Assembly (NCBI GenBank): GCA_964517605.1
Contig: CAZFCE010000016.1
Coordinates: 18,900 to 82,899 of the forward strand
Reading direction: 5' to 3'
Source of the DNA: an uncultured Caldilineaceae bacterium
Lineage (GTDB): Bacteria > Chloroflexota > Anaerolineae > 4572-78 > J111
DNA length: 64,000 nucleotides
The notes below the pieces were generated by a model that searched no databases, had not been told where the DNA came from, and saw only the letters and a program-made list of their open reading frames with translations. A program made the position numbers and the translations under genes. Shown here one piece after another: positions 11,638 through 56,140 of this stretch (position 1 is the first letter of the stretch; each line of letters begins with the position of its first letter).

Positions 11638-11654
11638 TCCCATTGATTGAACCC

Positions 11655-33404: not shown

Positions 33405-34060
33405 GTTGGCACCTCAATGTCCAGCACTTTGTAGGGATAAATGTTCACCACGTGGGTTTGGTTAAACCGGGTTTCGGTGGTTTCGGAGATGTTATAAACA
33501 TGCCGGTGGCCATGCACCATATATTTGGGTTTGAACACCTGCATTAACCACACAAACGATTTGAAGCCAACGTGAATCCGGTCATCGCCGTTGTGGATGC
33601 CAAATGGCGGAGAATGGGCCACAAACATATCTACGTAGCGGCCATAGCGTAATTTGTTAACCAAAAATTTGGGAACAAGATGAAGCAATACGTTGAGCCA
33701 CATTTCTTGCTGGCTGTACTGAAACCGGCCATCGCGGTAGCGAATTGAGCCTTCTAGCCCGGCCAGCAACAACTTTTTTACCCGGTACGCCTGGCAATGT
33801 AAATTGAGGCCGCCCAGCGGCCCGGCCACTATCGAGCCGTCAGACAGGTATTCGCGTTCCGGGTCGTGGTTGCCATGCACATACAGCAAAGAAACGTTTA
33901 AAACCGACTGGATGTATTCCAGGTAATAATAGGGTAGATCGCCACAACCAACAACCAGTTCTACATCGGCGTATTTGGCCGTGATAGAGGAGCTGTAGAT
34001 GTGTTCGACAACTTTATCGCTAACAAAAAGTACCTTCACCTGATTTACGTTCTGCGACAC
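33401..34060 (-). CDS. Metallophosphoesterase-family protein
   Basis: VLFVSD, GCGDL, VHGNHD, VAHSPP, and VHGHRH in canonical order. 4-nt overlap with pheA. Confidence 0.75.
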   Translation of the reverse strand: MSQNVNQVKVLFVSDKVVEHIYSSSITAKYADVELVVGCGDLPYYYLEYIQSVLNVSLLYVHGNHDPEREYLSDGSIVAGPLGGLNLHCQAYRVKKLLLAGLEGSIRYRDGRFQYSQQEMWLNVLLHLVPKFLVNKLRYGRYVDMFVAHSPPFGIHNGDDRIHVGFKSFVWLMQVFKPKYMVHGHRHVYNISETTETRFNQTHVVNIYPYKVLDIEVPT

Positions 34061-39780: not shown

Positions 39781-40340
39781 ATGGTATTGTTTATTAATTA
39801 ATTATAAGTAGTAATAAATAGTAGGCCCTGTGGATAAGTGGATAACGTCGCCCGGCGGCGACGGCTTATACTACATCTTGTGTAAAATAGTTTTTACAAA
39901 CCGGCATTTTGTTGTTGCCGCGCGTGGTTAGCTGTGGATGGCGGCTGGGGATAAAAACTAATAATTGTGGATAGATAAATGGGGGAACATTTGTCAAATG
40001 GCTTAGAAATTAATGGACTCTACATCTTGGGTAACAAAAATACTTCGTCCTACATATTGTGGTGCTTTTGGATCGTAATTTTCTGGATTCTTAAAAATTT
40101 GGCGAGTTATCCCCATTTGGATGTACTTATCCACAGTTATCAAGCGGTTATCCACAGAACATGTGATACAAAAATACGTTGCGGAGAGAATCCGGGGAAT
40201 TTTTTACGGGTTACGCCTGGAAACTAAACTTGTTGTTAGTTGTCGGCGCAGGTTGCGCTCCTTTGGGGCTAACGAAAGCTAACATAAGTTATCCCCATTC
40301 AAGGATAACTTATCCACAGATATAAGCCGGGTTATCCACA
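39781..40340. other. oriC segment downstream of dnaA: AT-rich tract plus at least 10 DnaA boxes
   Basis: Five perfect boxes: TGTGGATAA at 39829 and TTATCCACA at 40127, 40148, 40310 and 40332. Near-consensus boxes at 39838 (gtggataac), 39966 (tgtggatag), 40107 and 40289 (ttatcccca). AT-rich 39781-39825 (atggtattgtttattaattaattataagtagtaataaatagtag). Confidence 0.85.
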
Positions 40341-40425
40341 AAAATTTAAGGAAAATGAAAAATAGTGGCTTTTTTATAGAAAGCCACTCAATTATTATAT
40401 TGAAGGAGAATTTTTTGCAGAGGCG

Positions 40426-41820: not shown

Positions 41821-41857
41821 ACATAAATCTCCACTATTAGCAATACCCGCAAGGGGG

Positions 41858-42376
41858 CGTGGATAAAGTGACAACAAAATTAAAGGGCATGCCCAAAACC
41901 TGCAAAACGGGGCAACCCACAGAATAAATATTAAATTTTAACGGTGAATGCAGATTAAGAGATTTTGAGGAAAATCTCTGGTTACGGCCTTACTCACCCT
42001 AATTCAATCTGGAGAGTTTAGCTGGTAGGTGCGCCTATCAGCAGGTTGAAGTTCAAGTGTAAGAATTTGGTTTTTCTTGGAAACAGGGCGTGGCCAGCCT
42101 GTTTAAAAATCAACCCATCTCCCTCCTCTGATGTGGCACTATCAATATCGTTAAAGCGATGTTAAATCAACGTTAAATATTTATAAAAATTCAACTGTAC
42201 ACCAAAGTGACTAGCATTTTATCAGACCTAGCCAATGCTTTCAATACCCGTACCTTAAAAAAGCGATAGCGGCTGCCGGTTTTAAGAATAGTTATGGTGA
42301 GTTAATTCACGAATGTGGATAAGTTGTTGATAACGGTAGTTAAATCTTGGGAAAGTTGAGGATAATTTGGGGATAA
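41858..42376. other. Second DnaA-box / AT-rich cluster upstream of dnaA (bipartite origin or dnaA autoregulatory region)
   Basis: cgtggataa at 41858 (38 nt before the dnaA start). Same-orientation boxes tgtggataa 42314, tgttgataa 42325, tgaggataa 42357 and tggggataa 42368. AT-rich 42160-42200. Confidence 0.7.
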
Positions 42377-42459: not shown

Positions 42460-43407
42460 TTAAATGATAAATTTTGATAGCTGTTCGGCGATTTGCCGGC
42501 ATTGATGGCGAATCATCCCCAGTGGCACATTGGTGCTGAGGGCCAGCGACAACAAAATACCGTCGGCCAGGGTAAGGGTGTACAGCCGGTAGGCTCCGCC
42601 TTCGTGGAGGCTTTGGGTAAACCGCCCGGTCCGTTCGCCCAAAAATGTGGCGGCTTGCGCGGCGGCCTGCGTGCTTTGCGCCACCAGCACCGCCAAATCC
42701 AGGCATTCTTCCCGGCTGAGCATGCCGGCGTGGGCAATTAAATCCGCCCCGGCAATTAACAAAATGGCTTCGGCCCGCACCTCTCGATTTAAATCGCCCA
42801 GGTAGCGTAAAATCTCGTTTTCGCTGGCGCGCAAAAACCGAATGGTTTCTTGCGGCACCACCGGCGGAGCCAGCAAGTTGGTGTCTATTTCCAGCGCCGG
42901 CGGCGCAGAAACAGGCACGGGTGGTGCGGCGACGCTAACGGCGGCGGGCGGCGCTTCCTTTTCGGTGGCAACCGGCGCGGGGGCGCTTTTAGCCGGCGGG
43001 GTAAAGGCCGGCATTACTGTAGCCGAAGGCGTGCGTTGCCGGCTGCGGCCCAGAGCTTTTTCAACCAGATCGGGCAAATCGCCCACAAAAAACGGTTTGG
43101 GCAAAATACCGTTAATGCCCAACTTGCTGTAGGCATCCGGCAACGCCTGGCCAATCAAGGGAATCATCATTATTTTTACTTCGCCTCTGGTTTCGCGGAT
43201 GGCTTTTACCAGAATGCCGGGTTTCATATCGGTGATGCCCACATCAATAATAACCAGATCAAAACTTTGCTCAACCACAGCCAATAAGGCATCGCTCCCG
43301 GAATGCACGCAGGTGGCAATATATTGCCCGGAATTCTGCAATCCTTCTGCCAGCATTACACCAAAGCCTTCGTCGCTATCTACTACCAAAATGTTGGGCT
43401 TTACCAT
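42460..43407 (-). CDS. Response regulator: receiver domain + Ala/Pro linker + Roadblock/LC7 (MglB-like) domain
   Basis: Receiver NILVVDSDEG...FDLVIIDVGITDMKPG...GILPKPFF. C-terminal part ILRYLGDLNREVRAEAILLIAGADLIAHAGMLSREE...GGAYRLYTLTLADGILLSLALSTNVPLGMI has a Roadblock-like pattern. Confidence 0.7.
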   Translation of the reverse strand: MVKPNILVVDSDEGFGVMLAEGLQNSGQYIATCVHSGSDALLAVVEQSFDLVIIDVGITDMKPGILVKAIRETRGEVKIMMIPLIGQALPDAYSKLGINGILPKPFFVGDLPDLVEKALGRSRQRTPSATVMPAFTPPAKSAPAPVATEKEAPPAAVSVAAPPVPVSAPPALEIDTNLLAPPVVPQETIRFLRASENEILRYLGDLNREVRAEAILLIAGADLIAHAGMLSREECLDLAVLVAQSTQAAAQAATFLGERTGRFTQSLHEGGAYRLYTLTLADGILLSLALSTNVPLGMIRHQCRQIAEQLSKFII

Positions 43408-43418
43408 GAGTACATCCG

Positions 43419-43454
43419 TGAGGTTTATTTTGAGGTTAATATTGAGGTTACTGT
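43419..43454. repeat. Three 12-nt direct repeats (tgaggtta core) in the leader of the RR-Roadblock gene
   Basis: tgaggtt occurs at 43419, 43431 and 43443, at exact 12-nt spacing, starting 12 nt upstream of the start codon (minus-strand sense aacctca). Confidence 0.8.
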
Positions 43455-43520
43455 TAGCGTTTTTTCTTACGAATTAGTGGCATTTTAATGGATTTTGAAC
43501 AAAAGTCAACAACGTTGGCG

Positions 43521-44567
43521 TTACTGTTTTTTGCCTTTTATAAAAACATAAACGGCAATTACCCCCAACGCCAAAACAAAAAATAACAAAATACCGCCTA
43601 AACTTAAAAAATTAAAGGCTGATGCCGGTTTGGGCAGCTCTTTGACCGGCCCGGCGGCGGTTATAACCGGCGTTGGGGCGATAGTGACGGTGGCAGTTGC
43701 GATTGCCGGCGGTGTTGGTGTAGGTAAAGCGGTTCGCGTGGGTTGCGCCGTGGCGGTGGGCAAGACGGTTGCCGCTGCCGCCGCCGCAGCCGGCGGAGTG
43801 GCGGGTTCTGCCGGTAATGGTTGCCCGGCCAGGTTTTCTTGTTCTGGCATTGGGGCGGACTCTAATTGAACGGACCCTTCTGCCGGCACTTCGACTGCCA
43901 GCGCCGGCGGCGCGGCGGCTGCCGCACTTTTGGCCACGGGCGCTGCCGGTGCTGCGCCGCCGACGGCATCTTGCGCCAACATCATCTCCTGGTTAGCGGT
44001 GATTGGCGCTGCCGGCGGCGCGGCAGCTGCCGCCGCTTCGGCTTTTTCCTCTATAACTGCTGTGGCCACGGCGGTGGGTTGCGCTTCGATTGATTTTTTC
44101 ATAACCGCCGGTTCGGTGGCCAACACTGCGGGCGCGGCAGGCGCTTTTGCTACCGTCTCCGCTGCTGCCTCTTTTTGTTGCGCCACCATTTGCGCCGGGG
44201 CGCTCTGGCTGCCCGAAAACTGCGTACCCCAAAAAAGCCCGCCGCCAACGGCTAAAACGCAGATTATTGCCGCCGCCGCGGCGGCCAATCCCCCTGCCCA
44301 GGCCGGTAGCCAAAAACGGCGTTTGGGCTGGGGTTGCACTTCGGTGGCGGTGAGCGTAAAGGGGCGCGGGGCCGGCATTACCGGCAGACTGGCCAACAGC
44401 GTCACCGTTTGCCGCAACGAGGCCAAATCTGCCTGCAATTCGGGCGATTCGGCCAGCGCAGAATCTACCCGCGCGCGCTCGGCGGCGGTCACTTCACCGT
44501 CCAGATAAGGCGATAGCAACTCCCGGATTTCTTCGATATTTGGTTGCTGAGGTGTATTTGTCGCCAT
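43521..44567 (-). CDS. Membrane-spanning anti-sigma factor (N-terminal anti-sigma domain, TM, Ala/Pro/Thr-rich ectodomain, C-terminal TM)
   Basis: ELLSPYLDGEVTAAERARVDSALAESPELQADLASLRQT is a typical RsiW/RskA-type N-terminus. TM FWLPAWAGGLAAAAAAIICVLAVGGGLFW. Begins 11 nt after the sigma-factor stop. Confidence 0.75.
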   Translation of the reverse strand: MATNTPQQPNIEEIRELLSPYLDGEVTAAERARVDSALAESPELQADLASLRQTVTLLASLPVMPAPRPFTLTATEVQPQPKRRFWLPAWAGGLAAAAAAIICVLAVGGGLFWGTQFSGSQSAPAQMVAQQKEAAAETVAKAPAAPAVLATEPAVMKKSIEAQPTAVATAVIEEKAEAAAAAAPPAAPITANQEMMLAQDAVGGAAPAAPVAKSAAAAAPPALAVEVPAEGSVQLESAPMPEQENLAGQPLPAEPATPPAAAAAAATVLPTATAQPTRTALPTPTPPAIATATVTIAPTPVITAAGPVKELPKPASAFNFLSLGGILLFFVLALGVIAVYVFIKGKKQ

Positions 44568-44578
44568 GATTGCTGCGT

Positions 44579-45178
44579 TTATTGCTTTCTATCTTCTAGA
44601 CGATATTGGCCGGGCAAAAGTTCCTGTTGCGTGAGCAAAAAATCGCGCAAGCGCCGCCGCCCCCGGTTTAACCGAGATTTAACCGTTCCCAACGGCTGTT
44701 CTATAATTTCGGCGGTTTCCAGGTAGCTTAGACCCTGCACGTCACACAAAACCACCACCACGCGCTGATCCTGCGGTAACTGGTTAATGCCCATTTGCAG
44801 CCACTCGGCCAGTTCGCCCCGGAGCATGCGCTCTTCGAGCGGCTCATCGGCATTCATCAGGCTGGCGCTGTGCTCAGGAGCCTCTTCTACCAAATCCTCC
44901 AGCGAAGTTGCCGGTCGGCGGTTGCTGTAGCGAAGGTGGTCGTAACAGGTGTTGGTCACAATGCGCAAAATCCAGCTTTTAAACGACCCGCCCTGGTATT
45001 GTCGCAACGATTTATACGCCTTTAAAAAGGCATCCTGGCAGGCATCGGCGGCGGCATCACTGGAGCCGGTAACGCGATAAGCCACGTTGTAGGCGGTGCC
45101 CTGGTAGGCCATTACCAACTGGTTAAAGGCCGACAGGCTTCCTTTTTGCGCTTCAGAAATTATGCGAAGTTCATCCAT
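44579..45178 (-). CDS. ECF (group 4) RNA polymerase sigma factor
   Basis: Region 2 (AFNQLVMAYQGTAYNVAYRVTG...DACQDAFLKAY) and region 4 HTH (QRVVVVLCDVQGLSYLETAEIIEQPLGTVKSRLNRGR). Confidence 0.9.
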   Translation of the reverse strand: MDELRIISEAQKGSLSAFNQLVMAYQGTAYNVAYRVTGSSDAAADACQDAFLKAYKSLRQYQGGSFKSWILRIVTNTCYDHLRYSNRRPATSLEDLVEEAPEHSASLMNADEPLEERMLRGELAEWLQMGINQLPQDQRVVVVLCDVQGLSYLETAEIIEQPLGTVKSRLNRGRRRLRDFLLTQQELLPGQYRLEDRKQ

Positions 45179-45219
45179 GAGCTAAAATGGCCGGCCTTGT
45201 ATCATTTGGCTTAGGCAAT

Positions 45220-45248
45220 TTGACGTATAATCTTACATCAATTATACT
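45220..45248 (+). promoter_or_regulatory. Candidate promoter for tRNA-Leu (TTGACG-17 nt-TATACT)
   Basis: -35 at 45220-45225 and -10 at 45243-45248, with the tRNA 5' end at 45268. Confidence 0.6.
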
Positions 45249-45267
45249 TCTGAACTGTAAGACGTTC

Positions 45268-45349
45268 GCCGGAGTGGCGGAACAGGCAGACGCGCGCGAC
45301 TCAAAATCGCGTGGAGAAATCCTTGTGGGTTCGATTCCCACCTCCGGCA
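45268..45349 (+). tRNA. tRNA-Leu (anticodon CAA), class II with long variable arm
   Basis: Acceptor gccggag/ctccggc with discriminator a. Anticodon stem cgcga/tcgcg with loop ct-CAA-aa. Variable arm ggagaaatcc. T arm gtggg-ttcgatt-cccac. CCA is not encoded. Confidence 0.92.
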
Positions 45350-45413
45350 TTGATTATAACACCATTCATTATGATGTGCTAGGGCGATGTAACTTCGCTC
45401 ACCGGGTAAGGTG

Positions 45414-45436
45414 AGGCCACCTCGTAGAGGCGGCCT
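45414..45436 (+). terminator. Candidate terminator after tRNA-Leu
   Basis: aggccacc-tcgtaga-ggcggcct (one mismatch) followed by ttaatttt. Confidence 0.4.
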
Positions 45437-45492
45437 TTAATTTTGAATTCAAGGGTTTGTTTTTTTTTAGTAGTTAGTTTGTTTTTGCGCAG

Positions 45493-46575
45493 ATGGTCAA
45501 AAAGAAAAAAAATCGTCGCGGGATAGACCGCCGGATACTGATTTTTGTATCAATTGCCCCGGTGGGGTGTTTGCTGGCCTTGTTGTTTGGGTTGGTGTTA
45601 GCCTGGTATCTGTTTCCCACCCGATTTGTGAATGCCCGGGTTTCGGATTTGTCACCGCAACACGCCGACGAAGTGGTTATTATGGCGGCGGCGGATTTTG
45701 CCAAAAACAAAGACATCAAACGGGCCGATGAAATTCTTGGCCAGCTCAATGTGCCCAACAAACCCCAGTTTGTGTCGCTGGTTGCCGAACGGATGATTCG
45801 CACCAACCGTGGCCCGGTTGACGATGATATAAAAGAAGTAGTACAACTGGCCGATGCGTTGGGAGTGAGCACCGTTTCTATGGTGGCCTATGTTTCAACG
45901 CCCACGCCCACCTTTACCCCGGTCCCACCCACACCCACCGCTACCAGCACCATCCCGCCCACTCCCACCGATACACCCACGCCCCCCGTTCCTACGCCCA
46001 CGGCCACTCCGGTAGCCACCGATACGCCGGTGCCGGTAGTTAACACGCCCGTGCGGAATACGCCCACCCCGGCTCCGCCCACCGACACGCCCACACCTGC
46101 CGCCACCGCTACACCCTCGGTTGATTTTGTTATTACTAAACAGCGGTTGTTGACCAAACAGGAAAACGGCGGCTGCGCCGGGAATCATAATATTTTTGTG
46201 GATGTTATTGACGCCAAAGGCAACCCCATCAAAGGGGTGCAACTTGGCGATGCCTGGAATAACCCCGGCCCGGTGACCGGCCACAAAGGGGATAACCTGC
46301 CCGGCCACGCCGAGTACGACCTGTACAAAAACGGCGGTTTTATGATCTTGGTAAAATCCGATCCCACCGCCGGACGCCCCGTAACCAGCCAAACCTCCGA
46401 ATTGCTCAGTTCCGATGACTGGAAAATCGGGATTCCCAGATTGATTGAAGCCGGTTACTGCCCCGACGAAGCCACCTGCAAAGTGTTATGGAACAGCGGC
46501 GTGTTTGGCGTTGGCAACAACTCGATTTGCTGGGGGCACTATTCCTGGGAAGTGGTGTTCCAAAGAACCTGGTAA
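45493..46575 (+). CDS. Paralogue 1 of an unassigned family: TM anchor + helical juxtamembrane domain + Pro/Thr linker + Cys-containing C-terminal domain
   Basis: TM ILIFVSIAPVGCLLALLFGLVLAWYLF. Helical domain ...AAADFAKNKDIKRADEILGQL...VVQLADALGVST. PT-rich 135-215. C-terminal domain VDFVITKQ...GGCAGNHNIFVDVIDAKGNPIKGV...CWGHYSWEVVFQRTW. Confidence 0.8.
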   Translation: MVKKKKNRRGIDRRILIFVSIAPVGCLLALLFGLVLAWYLFPTRFVNARVSDLSPQHADEVVIMAAADFAKNKDIKRADEILGQLNVPNKPQFVSLVAERMIRTNRGPVDDDIKEVVQLADALGVSTVSMVAYVSTPTPTFTPVPPTPTATSTIPPTPTDTPTPPVPTPTATPVATDTPVPVVNTPVRNTPTPAPPTDTPTPAATATPSVDFVITKQRLLTKQENGGCAGNHNIFVDVIDAKGNPIKGVQLGDAWNNPGPVTGHKGDNLPGHAEYDLYKNGGFMILVKSDPTAGRPVTSQTSELLSSDDWKIGIPRLIEAGYCPDEATCKVLWNSGVFGVGNNSICWGHYSWEVVFQRTW

Positions 46576-46602
46576 CAGGCTTTTGTTAGGAAAATCGGGA
46601 TA

Positions 46603-47655
46603 ATGCAAAATTTAAATTCCAAAATGATGATAATTATAGCGGCGGTAGTAGTGCCCGTTTTTTGCGTGGCCTTGATGATAGCCGGTGGGTTGGTCGGTTT
46701 TTTGGCTACCTCGTCCATTTCAGCCGCCGATACTGTTCCGTTTAATGGGCGCAGCCAGGAAGAAGTCGAGGCTGAAATTCTGAATATTGCCGCTGACTAC
46801 GCTAACACCTCGGATTTGGAAGCGGTGCACGCCCGGTTAACGGAACTGCATATTCCCAACGAAGCCCAATACATCTCCTTTATGGTAGATCGCTATATTC
46901 AAGAGAGGCGCGGGGCCGAAGATGCCGACACCAAAAACCTGTTTGGGTTGGCCCAGGCGTTGGGTTCCAGCACCAAATCAATGGTGTTGGCTTTAACCAC
47001 GCCCACGTTTACGCCCACGCCCACCCTCCCGCCTACTTCAACCCCAACTCCGCCGCCCACGGCTACACCCGTTCCTACCGAACCGCCCACTAACACGCCC
47101 ACGCCGGTGGTTCCCACCGATACGCCCGCTCCGGCGGCCACGGATACCCCGGTTCCGGCGGTAGCCAAAGTAGCGGCTCCGCCCACCAACACGCCCGAAC
47201 CCACCGCCACTCCGGAACCTACCAAACCGGCGGTAGATTTTGCCGTTGCCCAGGCTCTTATGGTACCCAACCCGGCTTACGGTAGTTGCCCCGGTTTGCA
47301 CAACATTTTTGTGACAGTGGTTGACGCCGCCGGCAACCCCCTCAATGGCGTAACGGTTGAAGATACCTTTAAAGCCGCGCCGCCGCATACTGCTGGCGAT
47401 AAAGGCCCCGGCAAACTGGAATATGATTTGTGGGATAACGGCTTTTCGTTGCAAGTAACCAAAAAAGCCGATGGTTCTCCGGCTACCAGTGAGCAAACCC
47501 CCAAACTCAGTTCCTGGGATGAAGACATCCCCAACGAATGGCTGATTCAGGCCAACTATTGCAAAGACATGGCCGACTGTGTTGAACGCAAAGGCCACAA
47601 TCAATTGTGCCGTGGCCATTATTCTTATCAGGTTATATTTAAACAAACTTACTAA
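46603..47655 (+). CDS. Paralogue 2 of the same family
   Basis: TM MMIIIAAVVVPVFCVALMIAGGLVGFL. Helical domain ...NIAADYANTSDLEAVHARLTEL...LFGLAQALGSST. PT linker. C-terminal domain VDFAVAQ...GSCPGLHNIFVTVVDAAGNPLNGV...CRGHYSYQVIFKQTY. Confidence 0.8.
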   Translation: MQNLNSKMMIIIAAVVVPVFCVALMIAGGLVGFLATSSISAADTVPFNGRSQEEVEAEILNIAADYANTSDLEAVHARLTELHIPNEAQYISFMVDRYIQERRGAEDADTKNLFGLAQALGSSTKSMVLALTTPTFTPTPTLPPTSTPTPPPTATPVPTEPPTNTPTPVVPTDTPAPAATDTPVPAVAKVAAPPTNTPEPTATPEPTKPAVDFAVAQALMVPNPAYGSCPGLHNIFVTVVDAAGNPLNGVTVEDTFKAAPPHTAGDKGPGKLEYDLWDNGFSLQVTKKADGSPATSEQTPKLSSWDEDIPNEWLIQANYCKDMADCVERKGHNQLCRGHYSYQVIFKQTY

Positions 47656-47670
47656 CCGGGCTAATAATGA

Positions 47671-48795
47671 ATGCACCGGCCAGATCATCAATCTGACCCA
47701 CCGTTAAATGAAAACTCCACTCCGGCCCGGCCCAAAAAACCGGCGCAGAGTGGTTCGGTACAGGTTGGTGACGCACCTTTAACAACCCAAACGCAAGGCG
47801 ACGCCGTTCGCCGCCCGCCGCTTACCCTGCGCAGCACTCCTCCCGGCAAAGGCGACTGGTTGTGGTGGCTGGTCAGTTTTCTCTTTGGAGTTTTGGTTGG
47901 CCTGGTTATGTCGCTGGGCTACGGCTGGATATTAGACCCGCGCCCGCAGCCGGTTACTCCGGCAGATTTACGGGCCGAGGACAAAGCCTTTTACTTGCGC
48001 CTGATTGCGCTGGCTTTTGCCAAAGACGGCAACCTGCAACGAGCGCAGGCCCGGCTCAATACTTTAAATAACCCGTCTGTGGCCGCCTTAACGGAACAGT
48101 ATATTAACCAGGAGCAGGATATTCGTGATATTAAAGCGCTGGTGGCCTTATCCGAGGCGTTGGGGCAAACTTCAAGCGTAATGGCTGCCTTTATTGTCAC
48201 GCCCACGCCACTGCCAACTTCTACCTTTACCCCCGCTCCCACACCCACTCCCCGGCCCACCAAAACACCCACGCCTAAAGCCTCACCAACGGCTACCGTT
48301 ACCAACACGCCTTCTCCCACTCCATCGGCTACACCTACCGCCAGTAACACGCCCACCGGCACCAGTACCCCCACCGTTACCAACACGCCCACAGTTACCC
48401 CTACCCCCACCGCCACCAGTACGCCCACGCCGGGGCCGGATTCGCCGTTTGGCCTGGCCCAATCGGAAATGTTGTGCGAGGCGGGCGATCATCCGGGGAT
48501 ACTCCGGGTGTATGTTCGGGATAGGCTGGGTGTCGGAGTGCCGGGCATCGGCATTGAAGTTACCTGGTCGGGCGGCAAAGACACGTTTTTTACCGGCTTC
48601 AAGCCCGAAATTGATCCCGGTTACGCCGATTTTTACATGTCACCGGCGCAGCGGTACGAGATAACGCTGCTCAACGTAAAAACTGCCGGCGAACTGCCAG
48701 ACATTGATATCAATAACCCATCGCTTTGTACCAACCTGCCCGCAAACACGTTACCATCGTGGCGAGTGGTTTTTCAACAAGGCGTAAAAAGATAG
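47671..48795 (+). CDS. Paralogue 3 (divergent) of the same family, with about 60 aa of extra cytoplasmic N-terminus
   Basis: TM WLWWLVSFLFGVLVGLVMSLGYGW. Helical domain ...LIALAFAKDGNLQRAQARLNTL...LVALSEALGQTSS. PT linker. C-terminal domain LCEAGDHPGILRVYVRDRLGVGVPGI...LPSWRVVFQQGVKR. Confidence 0.75.
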   Translation: MHRPDHQSDPPLNENSTPARPKKPAQSGSVQVGDAPLTTQTQGDAVRRPPLTLRSTPPGKGDWLWWLVSFLFGVLVGLVMSLGYGWILDPRPQPVTPADLRAEDKAFYLRLIALAFAKDGNLQRAQARLNTLNNPSVAALTEQYINQEQDIRDIKALVALSEALGQTSSVMAAFIVTPTPLPTSTFTPAPTPTPRPTKTPTPKASPTATVTNTPSPTPSATPTASNTPTGTSTPTVTNTPTVTPTPTATSTPTPGPDSPFGLAQSEMLCEAGDHPGILRVYVRDRLGVGVPGIGIEVTWSGGKDTFFTGFKPEIDPGYADFYMSPAQRYEITLLNVKTAGELPDIDINNPSLCTNLPANTLPSWRVVFQQGVKR

Positions 48796-48854
48796 GGGGA
48801 ACCGGTTAACCCGCCACCGGCGCGGTTAGCTGCCTGTCTCAACAACTCAACTCA

Positions 48855-48901
48855 TTTTGAACCGGCGTTTTTCTCACCATAAACCCGCCGCCGGTTCAAA
48901 A
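48855..48901. promoter_or_regulatory. 13-bp perfect inverted repeat (ttttgaaccggcg-21 nt-cgccggttcaaaa) abutting the RBS of paralogue 4
   Basis: Arms at 48855-48867 and 48889-48901. The RBS-like gagaagga begins at 48904. Confidence 0.6.
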
Positions 48902-48921
48902 TTGAGAAGGATGGATGTGCG

Positions 48922-51900
48922 TTGAAGGAACAATTTATAAAAAACACGCCGCTTTTTGGCGGTCTAACCGACGATGAACAACGCGCCGTTGGCAAGCGCA
49001 TGCGCCAGGAACAATACGCTTCTGGCGAAACGCTGTTTATAAAAAACACCGAAAGCGACACCCTCTACCTGATTAGTGAGGGCTGGGTTAAGCTTTCAAG
49101 CGATGACCAATCGCCGGTGGTGGCCAATTTAGGCCCCGGCAGCCTGCTGGGCGAAACCGATTTCTTTTCGGGCCGGCCCTACGCCATGACCGCCCGCACC
49201 GCCGGCGAAGTGACGGTTTGGTCGCTGCACCAAACCGATATGGCCAACCTGCTCGAAGAGCGCCCGGAGTTGGGCATCTATTTAGGGCTGGCTTTTGGCC
49301 GGGGGATTGTGCAGTACCAAAACTACCTGGCCGAGCGGCTGGCCGGCATTCCGCTGCTGCAAGATTTATCGGCGCGGGAACGCCGCCTGGTGGCCCAGTA
49401 CCTTTCGCCCCGGCGTTACGCCACGGGAACGGCCATCTACCGCAGCGGCGACGCGGCGGCGGGCTTGTTTTTTCTTGAAAGCGGCCGCATTCACCTGTTG
49501 GGCGACACCGATGAAGATTACACCGAACTGAAAGCCGGCGAAGCCTTTGGCGAAATGGCGGTTATTTCAAACATGCCGCACCCCAATACCGCCCAGGCCG
49601 CCAGCGACGTGATTGTGTGGCAACTCAGCCCCGCCGATTTTGCCGCGTTAACCCGCACCAATCCTTCCATAAAAACCAATTTAAGCCGTAACCTGCGCGC
49701 CCGGTTAAGCGCCACCGATCAATCTTACGCGGTGGCGGTTTTGGGCCGCATTGCCCTGTTTGCCGATTTGCCCCGCGCTGTTCTCACCGATATTGCCCGG
49801 CTGTTATTGTTGCGGCACGTGCCCGCCGGCGAACTCATTTTTAGCCAGGGCGACCCCGGCGACGCGATGTACATTGTAGATAGCGGCGCTGTTACCGCCG
49901 ATTCGCCGCACCAGCCCGGCCAGTTTAAACGCCGCTTAAGCGATGGCGACTACTTTGGCGAAACGGCGCTGCTCACCGGCAAAACCCGCGAATTTACCGC
50001 CCACGCCGCCAACAACACCAATTTGTGGTGCCTGTATCGCACCGATTTTGACAGCCTGCTGGTAAAACACCCGCAAATCAGCGTGGCGCTTAGCCAGGCG
50101 CTCCGCGACCGGCTGGCTGCCGCCGAAGATTACACGCCCGAACCGCACCTGCGCAAAATTGCGGCGGCGGGCGGCCTGTCGCGCACGCAACTCGATGAGC
50201 TTTCGGCCATGCTGCAACCCCGGCGTTACCAGGGCGGCAGCACCATCTACTACGAAGGCGGGGCCAGCGATGAAATGTATTTCATTGAGCGCGGCCAGGT
50301 TGAATTGTGGGCCAACTCGGCGCAGGGGCCGGTTTTGCTGGAAGCTCTGGGTGAAAGCGACTATTTTGGTGAAATGGCCCTGTTTTCGGGCCGATCCCAG
50401 TTGGGAACCGCCTACGCGCTGGTTGATACCCAAATTTGGGCGCTAACCAAACGCGATTTTGACGACTTTTTGAACCGCTACCCCAATTTGGGCGTGATTA
50501 TGAGCCGCATTTTGAGCGAGCGCATGGAGCAAACCATGTCGCAATTGCGCGGCGTGCCGACTCAACGCAGTTTGCCCGCGCCGGGAGCCGGTTCTGTACC
50601 GGCCCGACCCGGTTCGGCCCAATACGCGGTGCCGCCGGTGTATCCGGTTTCAAACCGACCACCCACCACGCCGGTTGCGCCGCCGCCGACCAGCCGCCCG
50701 CTCACGCCGGTCAATCGTCCCCCCGGAGCCATGCCGCCGGTGCGTTTGCGCCCGGTTGGCCCGCCGCCGGGGTCTCGCCCGGTGGCGGCGTTACCGCCCG
50801 GAAATTTGCCAGCCGGCCCCACGCCAGGCCACAGCCAGTTTACCCAACCCATGCCGCCGGTGGCTCCGCCTCCGCCGCCGGTTTCCCGGCCAATGGCGGC
50901 TCCGGGGCCAGCGCCGCAAACCCAGGCCATGCCGGCTGCTGCTCAACCGCTGCCGCCCCAACCCAAACGGGATAAACGCGAGAAAAATAAAAAGAAGAAG
51001 AATACCTCGGCCAAACCGTTGCCCCCGCCGCCGGCTATGGCCGCTTTGCCGCCGCCACCGGCGCAATCCGCCCCCACCGGCGCGGCGCAACCGGCTTCGC
51101 GTTTTGCGGCGGCTCGCTCGTACACCAACCGCAAAATTGAGCGCCAGCGCCGAAGCATTTCGGTGTGGTTTGCCAAACGCACGCTGGGCGCAAAGTTAAG
51201 ATTGCTGGCTATTGCTATCGCTTTAATCTGGGTGTGCGGGATTATGGCCCCATCGTTTATTATTAACGCGCTGGCCTCAACGTTTGCCGATGATGGTGCG
51301 TTGCCCGGCGATGCCCGCAGTCCGCTTGAACAAATGCGCGAAGAGGGAGCAGTTGGCGCGGCGGCGGTGTTGCCGTTTGTGGAAACGGCTACGCCCACGC
51401 CCACCGAAACGCCCACGCGCACGGCCACGCCTACCACTACGCCCACGCCCACCGAAACACCCATTCCCACCAGCACGGCCACGCCCACGTTTACGCCCAC
51501 GCCCACCGAAACGCCGACGCCGGTTTTTACGCCCACGCCCACCGAAACGCCGACCCGGGTTTTTACGCGCGTTCCGCCGACCCCCACCGATACGCCCACA
51601 CCCGAAGCCACGGCCACGCCCGCGGTGGATTACCGGGTAATGAGTATTCGTCAGCTTACGCCGTGTGAAAACGAAGGCAAGCACCATATCTTTATCCAGG
51701 TGCAGGATGCCACCGGCCAGGGGGTTAATGGCGTGCCGGTAAAAATAAAATGGGCCGAAACCAAAGACGGCTCGGTGATTGCCAATACCGAAACCAAGAC
51801 CAACCTCACTGGCCAACCCGAACCCGGCCACATTGACTTTGCCATGTTCAAGGGCAGCTACGTGGTTGAGGTGATGGGCGGATCCAGCGAAGTAACCAAG

Positions 51901-52005
51901 CCGATTACCCCCGACTACGGCACCAACGAATCGTGCGGGCCAAACTCGGTGGCCAACTCGCTGTTCCATCTGTCGTTCCAGGTTATTTTCCGGCGAACCT
52001 ACTAA
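48922..52005 (+). CDS. Paralogue 4: four tandem cyclic-nucleotide-binding (cNMP) domains + Pro-rich region + Lys-rich patch + single TM + Pro/Thr linker + the family C-terminal domain
   Basis: Four repeats of the CAP/cNMP pattern (e.g. [16 protein letters not shown]...[19 protein letters not shown]...LGETDFFSG; FGEMAVIS; FGETALLTG; FGEMALFSG). P-rich region at about aa 550-690, then [47 protein letters not shown] repeats. C-terminal [37 protein letters not shown]...[17 protein letters not shown] start. Confidence 0.8.
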
Positions 52006-52033
52006 AAAACCGCAAAACCCGGTTTACCAGCCC

Positions 52034-52062
52034 ATCTCCCGGAAGCAGTCAGTCCGGGAGAT
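52034..52062 (+). terminator. Strong rho-independent terminator after the four-paralogue array
   Basis: atctcccgga-agcagtcag-tccgggagat followed by ttttgttt. Confidence 0.85.
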
Positions 52063-52124
52063 TTTTGTTTGCGCCCGGTTTGACGCTATACTATCGGCTT
52101 AAATACCCGCTACAGGAGTAACCC

Positions 52125-52379
52125 ATGACTGTGCCCGCCGATATATTAGCAATTTTACGTTGCCCCTATTGCGTTAGCGGCGATACGCGCAAACCAACCC
52201 CGGACCCCGGCCAACTAAAATTAACCGCCAACGGCTTGTGGCTGGTGTGCCAGGAAGCCGATTGCCGGCGCAAATATCCCATCCGCGAGGGGGTGCCGGT
52301 GATGCTGATTGACGAAGGCAGCAAATGGATGGCCACGTCCGTTGATAACTTGCCCCAACCGGGCAATCTGGTGAGCTAA
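52125..52379 (+). CDS. Trm112/YcaR-family small zinc-ribbon protein
   Basis: ILRCPYCVSG...CRRKYPIREGVPVMLIDE; 84 aa. Confidence 0.8.
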   Translation: MTVPADILAILRCPYCVSGDTRKPTPDPGQLKLTANGLWLVCQEADCRRKYPIREGVPVMLIDEGSKWMATSVDNLPQPGNLVS

Positions 52380-52381
52380 TT

Positions 52382-53722
52382 ATGAACCAACGCCAATACT
52401 TTTTTCTTTTTATTATAACAATGGCGCTGGCGTTGCTGGCGGCGCAGCCGTTGGCCGCGCAGGGCAACATTGAAACCGCCAACGCCAAATGGGAAAGTAA
52501 ATTCAGAGACCACCTCACCTTTACCATTGATGCCAAAAGTTCGGCGCAAATTAAGCAGGCGGAATTGTTTTACCAGATTGTGGGCGAGTTGGCCAGCGTG
52601 CGCAATGCCGCCGAATTTACGCCGGGCACGGCGATTACGGCCAAATTCACCGTTGATCAAACCAAGCCCGAAAATTATGTGCCGCCCGGCACCGAAGTGG
52701 AATACTGGTGGAAATTTGTTGACGCCAACGGCAATCAACTAAAAACCAACAAAGAAAAAATTACGCTGACGGATGAGCGTTACACCTGGCAGCAATTGCA
52801 AAACAACCGGCTAACCCTGTACTGGTATCAAGGCGACCAGAAATTTGGCGAAGCCCTGTTTCAACGGGCCAACGAGGCGCTCGATACCCTCAGCTCCGAT
52901 ATCGGCATAAAAATTGAGCATCCCATTAAAATTTTTATCTACGCCAGCCACACCGATTTGATGGACGCCATTAACGCCACCTCGCCGGAGTGGACCGGCG
53001 GGCAGGCTTTTTCTAAAAACGGGGTGGTGGTGATTGGCATTGAACCCACCGCCGACTCGCTGAAGTGGGGCTTGGGGGCAATGTCGCACGAAATGACGCA
53101 CCTGGTGGTGTACCAGGCCACCGATAGCCCATATGCCCAATTACCGCGCTGGCTTGATGAAGGCATTGCCGTGTACAACGAGGATCGCAACGGCCTGGTG
53201 CAGGATTTTCGGCTGGTGTTCGATCAGGCGGTGGCCAACAACCAGTTGATGACGCTGCGTACCCTGTCTAGCCCGTTCCCCCCCGACCCCAAAGAGGCTA
53301 ATTTGGCTTACGGCCAGAGCGGTTCGGTGGTTAAATTTATTGTGGATACCTATGGCCCCGACGCTATGGCCAAACTGCTCGCCATTTTTTCCCAGGGGGC
53401 TTTGTACGATGAGGCGCTGCAACAAGCCTTGGGCGTAGATACCGATGGGTTGGACAATGCTTTTCGGGCCAGTTTGCACTTGCCGCCGTTGCCCGGCAGC
53501 AAAACCGAAACGGCTCCGGCGGCCAATAGCGCCGGCGCTAAAGCCACCGTTGAGCCGGCGGCCCAACCGCAATCGGGCCTGGGCGAGGTGTCCGGCGCGG
53601 GCAAAGCCGCTCAACCCGAAACCACGCCATCACCGGCGGATAAACTGGCCAAACTGTTGCCCTGTTTGGCCGGAGTGTTGGCTTTGGTTTTTATGGGGGG
53701 GCTGGTGTATGGCCGGCGGTAG
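52382..53722 (+). CDS. Secreted/membrane-tethered zinc metallopeptidase (peptidase MA-like, HExxH)
   Basis: Signal peptide FFLFIITMALALLAAQPLAAQG, HEMTHLV plus downstream WLDEGIAVY (third ligand Glu), and C-terminal TM LLPCLAGVLALVFMGGLVYGRR. Confidence 0.75.
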   Translation: MNQRQYFFLFIITMALALLAAQPLAAQGNIETANAKWESKFRDHLTFTIDAKSSAQIKQAELFYQIVGELASVRNAAEFTPGTAITAKFTVDQTKPENYVPPGTEVEYWWKFVDANGNQLKTNKEKITLTDERYTWQQLQNNRLTLYWYQGDQKFGEALFQRANEALDTLSSDIGIKIEHPIKIFIYASHTDLMDAINATSPEWTGGQAFSKNGVVVIGIEPTADSLKWGLGAMSHEMTHLVVYQATDSPYAQLPRWLDEGIAVYNEDRNGLVQDFRLVFDQAVANNQLMTLRTLSSPFPPDPKEANLAYGQSGSVVKFIVDTYGPDAMAKLLAIFSQGALYDEALQQALGVDTDGLDNAFRASLHLPPLPGSKTETAPAANSAGAKATVEPAAQPQSGLGEVSGAGKAAQPETTPSPADKLAKLLPCLAGVLALVFMGGLVYGRR

Positions 53723-53737
53723 GTTTAACCGCCCGAC

Positions 53738-54421
53738 TCAATCATAATCGCCGTCTTGCCAGCCGTGTTCGCCCAGCAGCGGCACAAAAGCCACCGGAGC
53801 CAACCGGGTGGTGGTAAAATTGTCGTCGTGGCGTTCCAGGCACAATAAATCCTGATATCCTCTGGGGCCAACTGGCACAATCAGTTTGGCCCCATTTTTT
53901 AATTGCGGCAACAGCGGCGCGGGCACTTCGGGCGCGGCGGCTGTAACAATAATACCATCGTAGGGGCCGTGTTCCGGCCAACCGTAGCCGCCATCGCTAA
54001 CTTTTATCTCCACATTGAAGATTTCCAGCGCCAGCAGCGTTTGCCGGGCCTGTTTGGCCAGCGGCACCAGGCGTTCCACGCTGTAAACCTGGGCCACCAA
54101 CTGGCTGAGAATTGCGGCCTGATAGCCCGAACCGGTGCCAATTTCCAGCACCACCGCCGAGCCATCCGCCGGCAGCGCCAACGCCTGCGTCATAAAAGCA
54201 ACAATATAAGGCTGAGAAATAGTTTGCCCGTGGCCAATGGGCAGGGGGCGGTCTTTGTAGGCAGAATTGAGCAATTCCTGGCCAACAAAGCAATGGCGGG
54301 GAATTTTACCCATTGCTTTGAGCACATGCGGGTCAGAAATATCTCGCCGGGCCAGTTGGTACGTTACCATATCGGCCCGTTCTTGCTCCAGGTCCGGTTT
54401 TTGACCAGGCATAGTCACCAC
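53738..54421 (-). CDS. pcm: Protein-L-isoaspartate O-methyltransferase
   Basis: GHGQTISQPYIVAFMTQAL, VLEIGTGSGYQAAILS, and DGIIVTAAAPEVP. Confidence 0.9.
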   Translation of the reverse strand: MVTMPGQKPDLEQERADMVTYQLARRDISDPHVLKAMGKIPRHCFVGQELLNSAYKDRPLPIGHGQTISQPYIVAFMTQALALPADGSAVVLEIGTGSGYQAAILSQLVAQVYSVERLVPLAKQARQTLLALEIFNVEIKVSDGGYGWPEHGPYDGIIVTAAAPEVPAPLLPQLKNGAKLIVPVGPRGYQDLLCLERHDDNFTTTRLAPVAFVPLLGEHGWQDGDYD

Positions 54422-54610
54422 CTTATTTATTATTTAAGCACACTCCGGCTTGATTAGCAAGCGGATTTTTAGCCTGATTTTTAGCGCAAAACGCTTTTTT
54501 TGTTGGCCGTCATCATTCGTGTTATACTTTTGAGCTGTTATCTTACAGTTTATTGGTTCAATTGTCTGCAAGCCGCCGGGTTTGCAGATTTGTTTTTAGG
54601 AGTTTTAATT

Positions 54611-56140
54611 GTGACGTTGTTGATGGTTGTGTACGTAGTTACGACGGTTTTGCTGGCCGTTTACGCCCTTAACTCGTGGATACTCACCCTGTTGTATTGG
54701 GTTAACCGCCACCGCCGCCCGCCAACTCCCCCGGCTGGCGCGCCTTTACCGCCAGTAACGGTGCAGTTGCCCATTTTTAATGAGGCGTTGGTGATTGAGC
54801 GGTTAATCGAAGCCGTTGTGCAACTGGATTACCCAGCTCATTTGCTGCAAATCCAGGTGCTCGATGACTCAACCGACGAAACCACCGCGCTGGCTCAGGC
54901 CCGGGTAGATTTTCACCGGGCGCGCGGGCTTAACATTGAGCTAATCCATCGCGTTGAGCGGCCCGGCTTTAAAGCCGGCGCGCTGGCCAACGGGCTAAAA
55001 ACCGCCACCGGCGAGTTCATCGCTATTTTTGATGCCGATTTTGTGCCAACTCCCGATTTTCTAAAACAGACGATGCCCCACTTTGCCGGCAATCCCCAGC
55101 TGGGTATTTTGCAAACCCGGTGGGATCACTTAAACCGCCACTATTCCTGGTTAACCGCCGCCCAGGCGTTGGCCCTTGATGGCCATTTTGCCATTGAACA
55201 GGCCGCCCGCAATCGCTCCGGGTTGATGATTAACTTTAACGGCACCGCCGGGGTGTGGCGGCGAGCCTGTATTGAAGCCGCCGGCGGCTGGCAGGGCGAC
55301 ACCATTTCTGAGGATTTTGATTTGAGCTACCGCGCCCAGTTGGTTGGCTGGCAATGCCTGTTTTTGCGGGATGTGGCGGCTCCCGCCGAAATTCCGCCGC
55401 AGTTGGCCGCCCTCAAACGGCAGCAATTTCGCTGGGCCAAAGGCTCAATCCAGTGTTTTAAAAAGCTGGGCTGGCCGGTGTTCAGGGCCAATTTAAAATG
55501 GACGGTAAAATTGCAGGCGTTGGTTCACCTGAGCAGTTATTTTGTGCACCCGTTGATGGTACTGCTGGCGCTGGTAACGCCGCTGTTAATCATCAGCGGC
55601 GGCGCTGATAAAATTCGGTTTCCGCTGATTTACCTCAGTTTGATTAGTTTGGGGCCGCCCCTGTTGTACGCGGTGGCGCAAATCAGCCTGCACCCGGCTG
55701 ACTGGCGGCAAAATTACAAAGCCATGCCGTTGCTTATTTTGCTGGGCAGCGGCATTGCCCTGAGCAACACCAAAGCGGTGGTCGAAGCCCTGTTGGGCGT
55801 GGGCAACGTATTTAGGCGCACGCCCAAATTCAACGTAAATTCCACCACCGACCGCTGGCAAACCAGCTCGTACCGGCTGCGGCTGGATGGCTTGGTGCTG
55901 GGCGAACTGGCGCTGGCGTTGTACTCGTTGGCGGGCGCGGTGGCGGCAATGTTCAGCGGGCATAAAGTGGCGGTGCCGTTTATTTTGCTGTATGTGTTGG
56001 GGTTTGGCTATGTGGCGCTTTTGGGCTTGTGGGATGAATCGCAGCCCCTGGTGCGCCGGTTTTACAAGCAGTATCGGCTGCGCCGCAGTTTGGCCCGCGC
56101 TAAAACCGCCGGTCGCCGCCCGTTAAGCGCCGAACACTGA
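54611..56140 (+). CDS. Processive family-2 glycosyltransferase (cellulose-synthase-like / beta-glycan synthase type) with C-terminal TM bundle
   Basis: VLDDSTDET, IFDADFVP, ISEDFDLSYR (TED-like), and QQFRWAKG (QxxRW). GTG 54611 is preferred (RBS aggag 8 nt upstream); TTG 54500 is possible. Confidence 0.82.
   Translation: MTLLMVVYVVTTVLLAVYALNSWILTLLYWVNRHRRPPTPPAGAPLPPVTVQLPIFNEALVIERLIEAVVQLDYPAHLLQIQVLDDSTDETTALAQARVDFHRARGLNIELIHRVERPGFKAGALANGLKTATGEFIAIFDADFVPTPDFLKQTMPHFAGNPQLGILQTRWDHLNRHYSWLTAAQALALDGHFAIEQAARNRSGLMINFNGTAGVWRRACIEAAGGWQGDTISEDFDLSYRAQLVGWQCLFLRDVAAPAEIPPQLAALKRQQFRWAKGSIQCFKKLGWPVFRANLKWTVKLQALVHLSSYFVHPLMVLLALVTPLLIISGGADKIRFPLIYLSLISLGPPLLYAVAQISLHPADWRQNYKAMPLLILLGSGIALSNTKAVVEALLGVGNVFRRTPKFNVNSTTDRWQTSSYRLRLDGLVLGELALALYSLAGAVAAMFSGHKVAVPFILLYVLGFGYVALLGLWDESQPLVRRFYKQYRLRRSLARAKTAGRRPLSAEH

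Follow-up and report, generated by a model that had tools for sequence, protein, structure and literature searches.

A tandem four-CNB membrane protein family of Anaerolineae with one canonical cyclic-nucleotide cassette and an undescribed extracytoplasmic domain

Apart from the CRP-type regulators, bacteria have few cyclic-nucleotide effectors that are understood. In the regulatory subunits of Trypanosoma protein kinase A (PKA-R), phosphate-binding cassettes that lack the Arg bind nucleosides rather than cyclic AMP (cAMP). Apicomplexan PKG (Plasmodium PKG, PDB 5DYK/5DYL) and Toxoplasma PCR12 carry four tandem cyclic-nucleotide-binding (CNB) domains per chain, one or more of the sites being degenerate; both are soluble eukaryotic proteins whose CNB domains inhibit a fused kinase. 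CbpA of Pseudomonas aeruginosa is described as a cAMP-binding CNB protein that is polarly localized (PMC11139211, ref. 100). Considered here is the gene at 48922..52005 (+) of a 64,000-nucleotide stretch of DNA (the window) from an uncultured Caldilineaceae bacterium (contig CAZFCE010000016.1, positions 18,900 to 82,899). Its product, the CNB protein, joins four CNB domains through a single transmembrane (TM) helix to an outer domain. As judged from sequence and gene neighborhood, it is a member of a real, conserved, and uncharacterized membrane-protein family spanning the class Anaerolineae (Chloroflexota).

The first-pass annotation of the window had read the chain as four CNB domains, a Pro-rich linker, one TM helix, a TPTPT stalk, and a shared C-terminal domain, and this domain order is correct. 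The parts are as follows, with D1 to D4 denoting the CNB domains.

48922..49326 (+): CNB domain 1 (D1), aa 1-135, ending at 49,326; Tyr87 at the canonical Arg position
49327..49728 (+): CNB domain 2 (D2), aa 136-269; His220 at the Arg position
49729..50136 (+): CNB domain 3 (D3), aa 270-405; canonical Arg356, a probable cyclic-nucleotide site as predicted from sequence
50137..50556 (+): CNB domain 4 (D4), aa 406-545; Gln493 at the Arg position
50557..51153 (+): cytoplasmic linker, basic, Pro-rich, and disordered, aa 546-744
51154..51285 (+): juxtamembrane segment and single TM helix
51286..51618 (+): extracytoplasmic stalk, with an acidic segment, LPFVET (aa 817-822), and TPTPTETPT-type Pro/Thr repeats
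51619..52005 (+): C-terminal extracytoplasmic beta-sandwich and stop codon, aa 900-1027 (128 aa)

The N-terminal half of the protein qualifies for the CNB superfamily by both profile score and beta-roll fold. Pfam cNMP_binding (PF00027) matches the protein four times, for 254.9 bits summed; scanned singly, the domains score 64.9 (D1), 66.0 (D2), 72.1 (D3), and 69.4 bits (D4). All four pass the cut-off of 27.5 bits, which removes the reservation, raised when the repeats were first noticed, that they might fall below hidden Markov model thresholds. Pairwise identity among the four domains is 27-35%, D3 and D4 being the closest pair. In a full-length AlphaFold2 (AF2) model built on 41 homologues, residues 1-545 form four units, each a beta-roll with helices, with a predicted local distance difference test score (pLDDT) mostly >90. 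A Foldseek search with the whole chain matched PKG and PKA-R, confirming the CNB folds, with a domain arrangement that is not comparable. No other Pfam family reaches threshold on the protein, no helix-turn-helix (HTH) family appears in Pfam at E up to 1, and NCBIfam returns only CNB-containing models, including CRP/FNR (in its CNB part only), all far under their cut-offs. The earlier observation that no enzymatic or DNA-binding output domain is visible is therefore borne out by the Pfam and NCBIfam scans.

The four domains differ at the Arg of the phosphate-binding cassette. A HMMER alignment to Plasmodium PKG and Toxoplasma PCR12 places R356 of D3 in register with the cassette Arg, and in the same column stand His220 of D2 and Gln493 of D4; the column applied to D1 holds Tyr87. 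The Gly-Glu of the cassette is retained in all four domains, and the motif FGE[MT]A that had been ascribed to each of them fails for D1, which reads LGETDFF. Among 109 full-length homologues, the set on which all column counts are based, the Arg column of D1 is divided among Arg (53), His (28), and Tyr (25), that of D2 between His (104) and Tyr (5), and that of D4 among His (81), Arg (10), Tyr (10), and Gln (8). In D3 it is Arg in 109/109, and residues G346, E347, G353, and R356 of this domain are invariant (alignment A2). The suggestion that the Arg is shifted or absent in some repeats thus stands as to its absence from D1, D2, and D4, and falls for D3, where the Arg of GKTREFTA is unshifted and aligns with the canonical Arg of PKG/PCR12.

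By this pattern of conservation, D3 alone is under the constraint expected of a genuine cyclic-phosphate pocket. Because its cassette, G-E...R-[T/S], is canonical and invariant family-wide, a 3',5'-cyclic nucleotide is the expected ligand of D3; to conclude that the ligand could not be inferred was too pessimistic for this domain, and holds only in that the sequence cannot tell which nucleotide it is. D2 and D4 share a conserved G-[KR]-P-H variant that looks like a deliberate alternative rather than decay. Fold matches of the CNB protein include trypanosome PKA-R structures with inosine or guanosine (PDB 6HYQ, 6FTF, 6FLO), and by analogy D1, D2, and D4 may either be structural or accept a ligand without phosphate, like the trypanosome PKA regulatory subunits that bind nucleosides.

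The path from the CNB module to the outside of the cell runs through two linkers and one helix. The inner linker (aa 546-744, about 200 aa) is 29% Pro with a net charge of +23, and AF2 gives it pLDDT <50 at residues 548-744; it contains the 13-residue patch cited in the first-pass annotation (aa 682-694, nt 50965-51003), so that the Pro-rich segment and the patch ahead of the TM helix are both present as reported. Across the 109 homologues this linker ranges from 61 to 387 aa (median 214), with 20% Pro and a net charge whose median is +25 and which is never <+5. The only hydrophobic segment in the protein has its core at 759-785 and its hydropathy peak at 763-781; AF2 models a long helix at 755-788, preceded by short helices at 737-751. 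In the stalk, the TPTPT stretch covers approximately 813-899, and pLDDT is <50 for residues 810-897. The outer linker of the homologues is 91-137 aa long (median 125), is 47% Pro plus Thr, and has a median net charge of -6. The single helix and the TPTPTETPT repeats of the earlier description are both confirmed.

The chain starts with a CNB domain and therefore has no N-terminal signal sequence. On its N-side the TM segment is flanked by ten Lys/Arg residues and on its C-side by two Lys/Arg and six Asp/Glu. The absence of a signal peptide and this charge asymmetry make an N-in/C-out topology well supported as a prediction; the positive-inside rule, from which a cytoplasmic location of the CNB domains had been proposed, holds in the window protein and, as net charge, over the 109 homologues. 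W749 is invariant, and F750, W770, C772, and P777 in the juxtamembrane and TM region are nearly so (alignment A2), as are L817, P818, and F819 in the stalk. The unusual conservation of the TM/juxtamembrane segment suggests contacts with an intramembrane partner.

The outer domain is marked by the motif CENxGxHH, a Cys915/Cys1005 pair, and a terminal H-x-S-F-x-V-I-F-x-R-T-Y; its invariant or near-invariant residues include C915/C1005, E916, N917, H921, H922, and H1016. The Cys pair fits an extracytoplasmic placement, and the His/Glu cluster could possibly form a metal or ligand site. From alignment A1, which comprises 41 family members and three paralogues encoded in the window (44 outer-domain sequences), AF2 builds an all-beta sandwich with one short helix at pLDDT 90. 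Foldseek against the PDB matches this model to CnaB/pilin domains, the transthyretin-like domain of carboxypeptidase D, transthyretin, and CarboxypepD_reg, with template-modeling scores (TM-scores) of only 0.3-0.4, and the best match of the A1 profile among PDB sequences is transthyretin at a non-significant E of 0.011. No Pfam or NCBIfam family matches the domain above threshold; below threshold, Pfam reports SdrD_B (20.9 vs 29.7 bits), and Big_1, Ig_DR_A0283-like, and CarboxypepD_reg in 15-28 of the 44 outer-domain sequences, in none of which RodZ_C is found at E up to 1. The modeled domain is alike in fold class to transthyretin-like/Ig-like beta-sandwiches, with no support from profile scores for membership in a sequence family.

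A search of 1.84 billion representatives with the A1 profile retrieved 1100 proteins at E <= 1e-3, 201 of them at E <= 1e-10; the domain is nearly always at the extreme C-terminus. Other carriers among the matches are P0133, P0174, P0197, P0129, and P0142. In P0133, P0174, and P0197 the domain stands at the end of zf-HC2 anti-sigma factors, a group of carriers that also bear SAF and GH5/cellulase-like domains; it is found as well on an FG-GAP/Big_5 protein, on a dockerin/CarboxypepD_reg protein, and on proteins with one or three CNB domains. In this distribution, the outer domain behaves as a general extracytoplasmic module of this lineage, not a catalytic one. The domain family, with about 200 representatives below 1e-10, has not been described before.

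A protein search with the CNB protein itself gave 207 proteins at E <= 1e-10. The best 120 of these are almost all 900-1150 aa long, come from metagenome-assembled genomes of Anaerolineae, Caldilineae, Ardenticatenia, and other Chloroflexota, and have database names that go no further than 'cyclic nucleotide-binding domain-containing protein' or 'CRP-like cAMP-binding protein'. The full architecture is present in 109-111 of the best 120, with the common C-terminal ending H-x-S-[FY]-E-V-x-[FI]-Q-R-T-[YWF]. A GTDB scan, with one genome per species, confirmed 143 matching stretches; 80 loci were kept, all labeled as Chloroflexota lineages, and among them are 63 non-redundant loci with a four-CNB gene. 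A few relatives depart from the plan: P0047 (1003 aa) follows its four CNB domains, TM helix, and Pro/Thr stalk with RodZ_C (PF13464, 58 bits) in place of the family outer domain, P0117 and P0118 have only a short tail and no outer domain, and P0119 and P0120 have an extended version of it. Since the outer domain can be swapped (P0047) or absent (P0117/P0118), membrane tethering of the CNB module appears to be the constant core of the family. Searches of full-text literature found no published account of this family. CNB sensor domains are familiar; no description exists of the architecture, the outer domain, or the conserved gene cluster.

The open reading frame (ORF) is the sole long one at 48922..52005 (+) and begins with TTG, the earliest start codon past an in-frame TAA at 48880. 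A ribosome-binding site, GAAGGA, lies approximately 11 nt 5' of the TTG, and the homologues have the same N-terminus (M/L/V-K-E-x-F-I-K-N-x-P-L-F), mostly from TTG or GTG starts; both observations support the assigned start. Just 5' of the ribosome-binding site, at 48857-48900 (+), is a perfect 13-bp inverted repeat, TTTTGAACCGGCG ... CGCCGGTTCAAAA (fold z-score -2.6); close relatives have another inverted repeat, GATTTTGGA...TCCAAAATC, at the equivalent spot. It is extremely improbable that the ORF arose as an artefact of assembly or annotation, for example as two genes joined by a frameshift. DNA of Pro/Thr repeats is a sequence type prone to misassembly, and nothing else was found in favor of an artefact; an independent gene call on a 120-kb JGI metagenome contig (3300022666, Ga0248168_1000222) gave an identical 1027-aa product, and the end-to-end plan recurs in more than 100 homologues from independent assemblies. 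The artefact reading, and with it the concern that the gene might be a fusion or mis-assembly, is refuted by the family data.

The reading that is tentatively favored, with a probability put a little short of even, is that the CNB protein is a bitopic, membrane-tethered cyclic-nucleotide receptor or scaffold and not a conformational relay. The outer domain would anchor the protein on an envelope component, on the outer domains of the co-encoded paralogues, or on both, and a cyclic nucleotide at D3 would alter how the four-domain module associates with itself or with a partner in the cytoplasm, with D1, D2, and D4 in one of the roles given above. Coupling between inside and outside, if there is any, would come about via localization or clustering rather than by allostery along the chain. 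A relay is improbable because both linkers are predicted to be disordered and vary in length, and because some relatives lack the outer domain or have a different one; the scaffold role, which the first-pass annotation had also offered, fits better than coupling does.

Several points weigh against the tethered receptor or scaffold. The mechanism is drawn from anatomy only. The residue after Arg356 is Glu in the window protein, where 87/109 homologues have Thr or Ser, and this could weaken nucleotide binding. A nucleotide cyclase (Guanylate_cyc, PF00211) was sought and not found, either in the 40 window ORFs scanned or within 10 kb at three related loci. P0047, from which the exchange of the outer domain is known, is represented by one 3.7-kb contig and may be a chimera across repetitive Pro/Thr-linker DNA.

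The CNB gene is the last of four same-strand genes, and the following features of the window lie 5' of it (ECF, extracytoplasmic function).

42460-43407 (-): response regulator with an MglB/Roadblock-like C-terminal part (NCBIfam, Pfam)
43521-44567 (-): zf-HC2 class I anti-sigma factor (Pfam, NCBIfam)
44579-45178 (-): ECF sigma factor, SigW/SigM/SigE-like (Pfam, NCBIfam)
45268..45349 (+): tRNA-Leu(CAA) (ARAGORN; Rfam 56 bits), directly 5' of the paralogue/CNB operon
45493-46575, 46603-47655, and 47671-48795 (+): three paralogous genes 5' of the CNB gene (tblastn, alignment A1)

Each paralogue consists of an N-terminal TM helix, a helical outer domain of approximately 100 aa, a Pro/Thr stalk, and then the C-terminal domain of the CNB protein; tblastn and alignment A1 show that residues 900-1027 recur in these three ORFs. 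The paralogues match no Pfam or NCBIfam family, and a PDB sequence search with paralogue 1 returned only a low-complexity linker match. The conserved gene order is tRNA-Leu(CAA), one to three small single-pass proteins with the outer domain, and the CNB gene. At the loci examined, a gene with the shared C-terminal domain stands directly 5' of the CNB gene; tblastn detects the N-domains of the paralogues there at most related loci, and in several divergent loci without a tblastn match a YEV.FQR-type ending is visible directly 5' of the CNB start. The gaps between paralogue and CNB genes are short, and in some lineages stop and start overlap.

Neighborhood counts are out of 40 related loci, non-redundant and each with 5 kb or more of upstream sequence. 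The divergent ECF sigma/anti-sigma pair is present at 32/40 of them. The anti-sigma factor of the window has its zf-HC2 domain and TM helix followed by a low-complexity outer region of about 210 aa, rich in Ala, Pro, and Thr, and then, at its extreme C-terminus, a second hydrophobic segment and KGKKQ, which resemble a C-terminal anchor or sorting signal. The response regulator has a receiver domain, a Pro/Ala-rich linker, and an MglB/Roadblock-like domain (NCBIfam MglB 31.5 bits; Pfam Robl_LC7 weak), and it adjoins the ECF pair in the closest relatives only. On the 3' side of the CNB gene lie a small Trm112-like ORF, Peptidase_MA_2, PCMT, a multi-TM GT2, and Acyl_transf_3, conserved only in close relatives. 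The Trm112-like zinc-ribbon ORF (52125-52379 (+), 84 aa) stops 3 nt before the Peptidase_MA_2 start (52382); the JGI record and one relative also have it as a called gene. The metalloprotease, GT2, and acyltransferase of the close relatives, together with an ECF pair of the envelope-stress type, would place the function of the CNB cluster at the cell envelope.

The wider window is ordinary chromosome, with dnaA, dnaN, SelA, RNase J, and aspartokinase, and no mobile elements were found in it. The dnaA gene (40426-41877 (-)), at a distance of 7 kb from the cluster, falls where the GC content of the window is lowest (40001-42000, 0.487), and dnaN is at 18551-19780; the window may be near the replication origin. 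Two generic Metallophos proteins are encoded in the window (11643-12581 and 33401-34060), and they are not assignable as cyclic-nucleotide phosphodiesterases. ARAGORN calls a 96-nt tRNA-Trp at 12225-12320 (-) inside the first of these ORFs; Rfam reports nothing there at its gathering threshold, and the call is probably a false positive.

Closely linked to the operon is the tRNA-Leu(CAA) gene, which lies between the ECF sigma gene and the paralogue/CNB operon and has its own promoter, TTGACG-17-TATACT, at 45220-45248. It is directly 5' of the operon at 35/40 loci, down to approximately 35% protein identity, a tighter linkage than that of the ECF pair (32/40). Just past the tRNA, an exact minus-strand TATAAT (45353-45358 in the window) occurs in 32/33 loci, compared with 1.4 expected from shuffles; at 20 loci it has an extended TGn (window 45359-45361), and at 27 loci a [CT]T[AG]GC element lies 18-19 nt 5' of it (in the window, a -35-like element at 45378-45382). 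In several cases the ECF start codon directly adjoins the tRNA promoter, with no space for a further promoter; for this reason, the minus-strand TATAAT is probably the promoter of the ECF operon. Transcription from it would probably cross the entire tRNA-Leu gene in antisense and run toward the tRNA promoter, an arrangement of convergent promoters that is conserved.

On its 3' side the tRNA is followed by two or three hairpins (45381-45445 (+)), whose stems differ between loci yet stay paired. The last, GGCCACCTC-GTA-GAGGCGGCC followed by TTTAATTTTG, is terminator-like and leaves approximately 50 nt before the ATG of the first paralogue. Rfam matches only the tRNA itself, and no riboswitch or known RNA between tRNA and operon; read-through from the tRNA promoter may account for expression of the operon. 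A search for a conserved ECF-type promoter motif 5' of the operon gave none above shuffles, the best bipartite motif being found at 9/26 loci vs 7 in shuffles. The share of TTG among Leu codons is 35-48% in seven genes of the cluster at 42460-56140 (response regulator, anti-sigma factor, ECF sigma factor, paralogues 1 and 2, Peptidase_MA_2, and GT2) against a mean of 23% for the window. Control by tRNA-Leu(CAA) in the manner of bldA was considered and rejected, as TTG makes up only 15% in paralogue 3 and 26% in the CNB gene, counts are small, and the trend is too weak.

Two other accounts give the neighborhood a larger part than the tethered receptor or scaffold does. The CNB protein might be an accessory regulator of the adjacent ECF pair, in complex with the paralogues and the zf-HC2 anti-sigma factor, such that cyclic nucleotide and envelope state together control sigma release; this is unlikely, though far from negligible. 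The divergent sigma and anti-sigma genes, the former encoding a factor of the envelope-stress type (SigW/SigE-like), accompany the operon at four-fifths of the non-redundant loci (32/40), down to approximately 35% protein identity; in addition, the TM segment is conserved, and the same outer domain ends other zf-HC2 anti-sigma factors (P0133, P0174, P0197). The anti-sigma factor of the window, however, lacks the shared outer domain, a tRNA gene with its own promoter sits between the two units, and no conserved ECF-type promoter motif was found 5' of the operon (9/26 loci vs 7 in shuffles). Eight of the 40 loci are without the sigma pair, three of which retain tRNA-Leu and operon, and adjacency of genes alone is no proof of physical contact. 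Of similar, minor probability is a class-wide envelope signaling device of a novel type, composed of the small outer-domain protein(s), the four-CNB protein, and usually the divergent ECF pair. In it, a cytoplasmic second messenger read by one live CNB domain among three degenerate ones would control the clustering or placement of an extracytoplasmic assembly made from the hitherto undescribed transthyretin-like domain and/or gate the ECF sigma factor.

The remaining alternatives turn on whether the CNB domains read a nucleotide at all and on what they act. The protein could be a RodZ-like pseudo-receptor scaffold, in which the CNB folds serve as protein-interaction modules without any cyclic nucleotide and link a cytoplasmic structure to the wall. 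The Arg is missing from three of the four cassettes, no cyclase was found nearby (in the 40 window ORFs or within 10 kb at three related loci), the overall layout mirrors RodZ, and the close relative P0047 bears a true RodZ_C (58 bits); that variant, though, may be an assembly chimera, and the window protein has neither HTH_25 nor RodZ_C. The invariance of G, E, G, and R in the D3 cassette over 109 homologues is the signature of a retained ligand site and counts against the pseudo-receptor, a reading that is rather improbable, about on a par with the ECF accessory. Inside-out allostery, in which nucleotide binding reshapes the TM helix and hence the activity of the outer domain, was the coupling that the first-pass annotation had envisaged for CNB domains wired through one TM helix. 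A ligand-binding module inside and a conserved domain outside are indeed joined by a conserved TM segment, but about 200 disordered residues inside and about 110 outside intervene (pLDDT <50 at 548-744 and 810-897), their lengths vary widely between homologues (61-387 and 91-137 aa), and the outer domain has no recognizable catalytic features and is missing or swapped in some relatives; such allostery is very unlikely. Least probable of these, and largely refuted, is a Pycsar-type anti-phage effector activated by a cyclic pyrimidine: the PADLOC PycTIR and Pycsar effector models do match (E 1e-20 to 1e-29), but only in their CNB part, the protein has no TIR, cyclase, or multi-TM effector, no cyclase is adjacent in the window or at three related loci, and the fixed chromosomal position by tRNA-Leu, ECF pair, and housekeeping genes, held class-wide, is unlike that of patchy defense islands.

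The Anaerolineae are abundant filamentous bacteria of sludge, sediments, and hot springs whose signaling is almost wholly uncharted, and the hosts of this family are mostly uncultured. The family offers a defined, conserved target in them, with a predicted live site at R356, three degenerate sites that may bind another ligand, a hitherto undescribed outer domain also carried by anti-sigma factors and surface proteins, and a fixed neighborhood that hints at the envelope. If the tethered receptor or scaffold is right as to cyclic-nucleotide binding and a partner, a tether- or scaffold-type effector would be added to the modes of bacterial cyclic-nucleotide readout; if the envelope device is right, it would be a bacterial cyclic-nucleotide effector that is neither transcription factor, channel, nor kinase; and if there is neither nucleotide binding nor a partner, the CNB protein would be one further uncharacterized multidomain membrane protein.

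Among the classes compared, the window protein belongs to the CNB superfamily only and lacks the defining features of the others. There is no C-terminal HTH after a single CNB domain, as in CRP/FNR, and no multi-helix pore, as in the MloK1/SthK/bCNG channels, since the protein has a single hydrophobic segment and one predicted TM helix. Nor does Pfam find a Pkinase or RIIa match, as PKA-R/PKG would have; outside the CNB domains there are the linker, the TM segment, and the beta-sandwich. The best sequence and fold matches are the regulatory region of apicomplexan PKG and PCR12, from which the CNB protein differs in having no kinase, a single-pass anchor, an outer domain, and three of four sites non-canonical; whole-chain TM-scores to PKG-type matches are ~0.16-0.19, so likeness in domain arrangement is not supported. 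PKA regulatory subunits, including that of Trypanosoma, share the tandem CNB folds and supply the precedent for a cassette without Arg, whereas the CNB protein has no dimerization/docking domain, inhibitor sequence, or kinase partner, and its Tyr, His, and Gln replacements differ from those of the Trypanosoma protein. The MloK1 and SthK channels and the Pycsar CNB effectors are, like it, membrane proteins with cytoplasmic CNB domains, and they match it in sequence (the CNB domains of MloK1 and SthK) or by effector model (Pycsar). In those systems, pore-forming, multi-TM, or TIR effector parts are directly coupled to the CNB domain; here, one TM helix lies approximately 200 disordered residues away from the CNB module.

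The class I zf-HC2 anti-sigma factors (RsiW/RseA) also span the membrane once, between a binding module in the cytoplasm and a domain outside it, and the outer domain described here occurs on some of them; the cytoplasmic part of the window CNB protein consists of CNB domains and is without zf-HC2 (Pfam). RodZ has the same bitopic layout, with a cytoplasmic module, a basic juxtamembrane region, one TM helix, a Pro/Thr-rich linker, and a small C-terminal beta domain, but its HTH_25 and RodZ_C are both missing from the window protein, so the resemblance is architectural and not one of homology. CbpA, as far as it is portrayed in the source cited above, has CNB domains without enzymatic or DNA-binding output and acts through its localization; it is soluble and has two CNB domains, where the window protein has four, a membrane anchor, and an outer domain, and the likeness lies in the CNB fold. 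By analogy, CbpA is the closest bacterial counterpart of the CNB protein in logic, and RodZ is the closest in layout.

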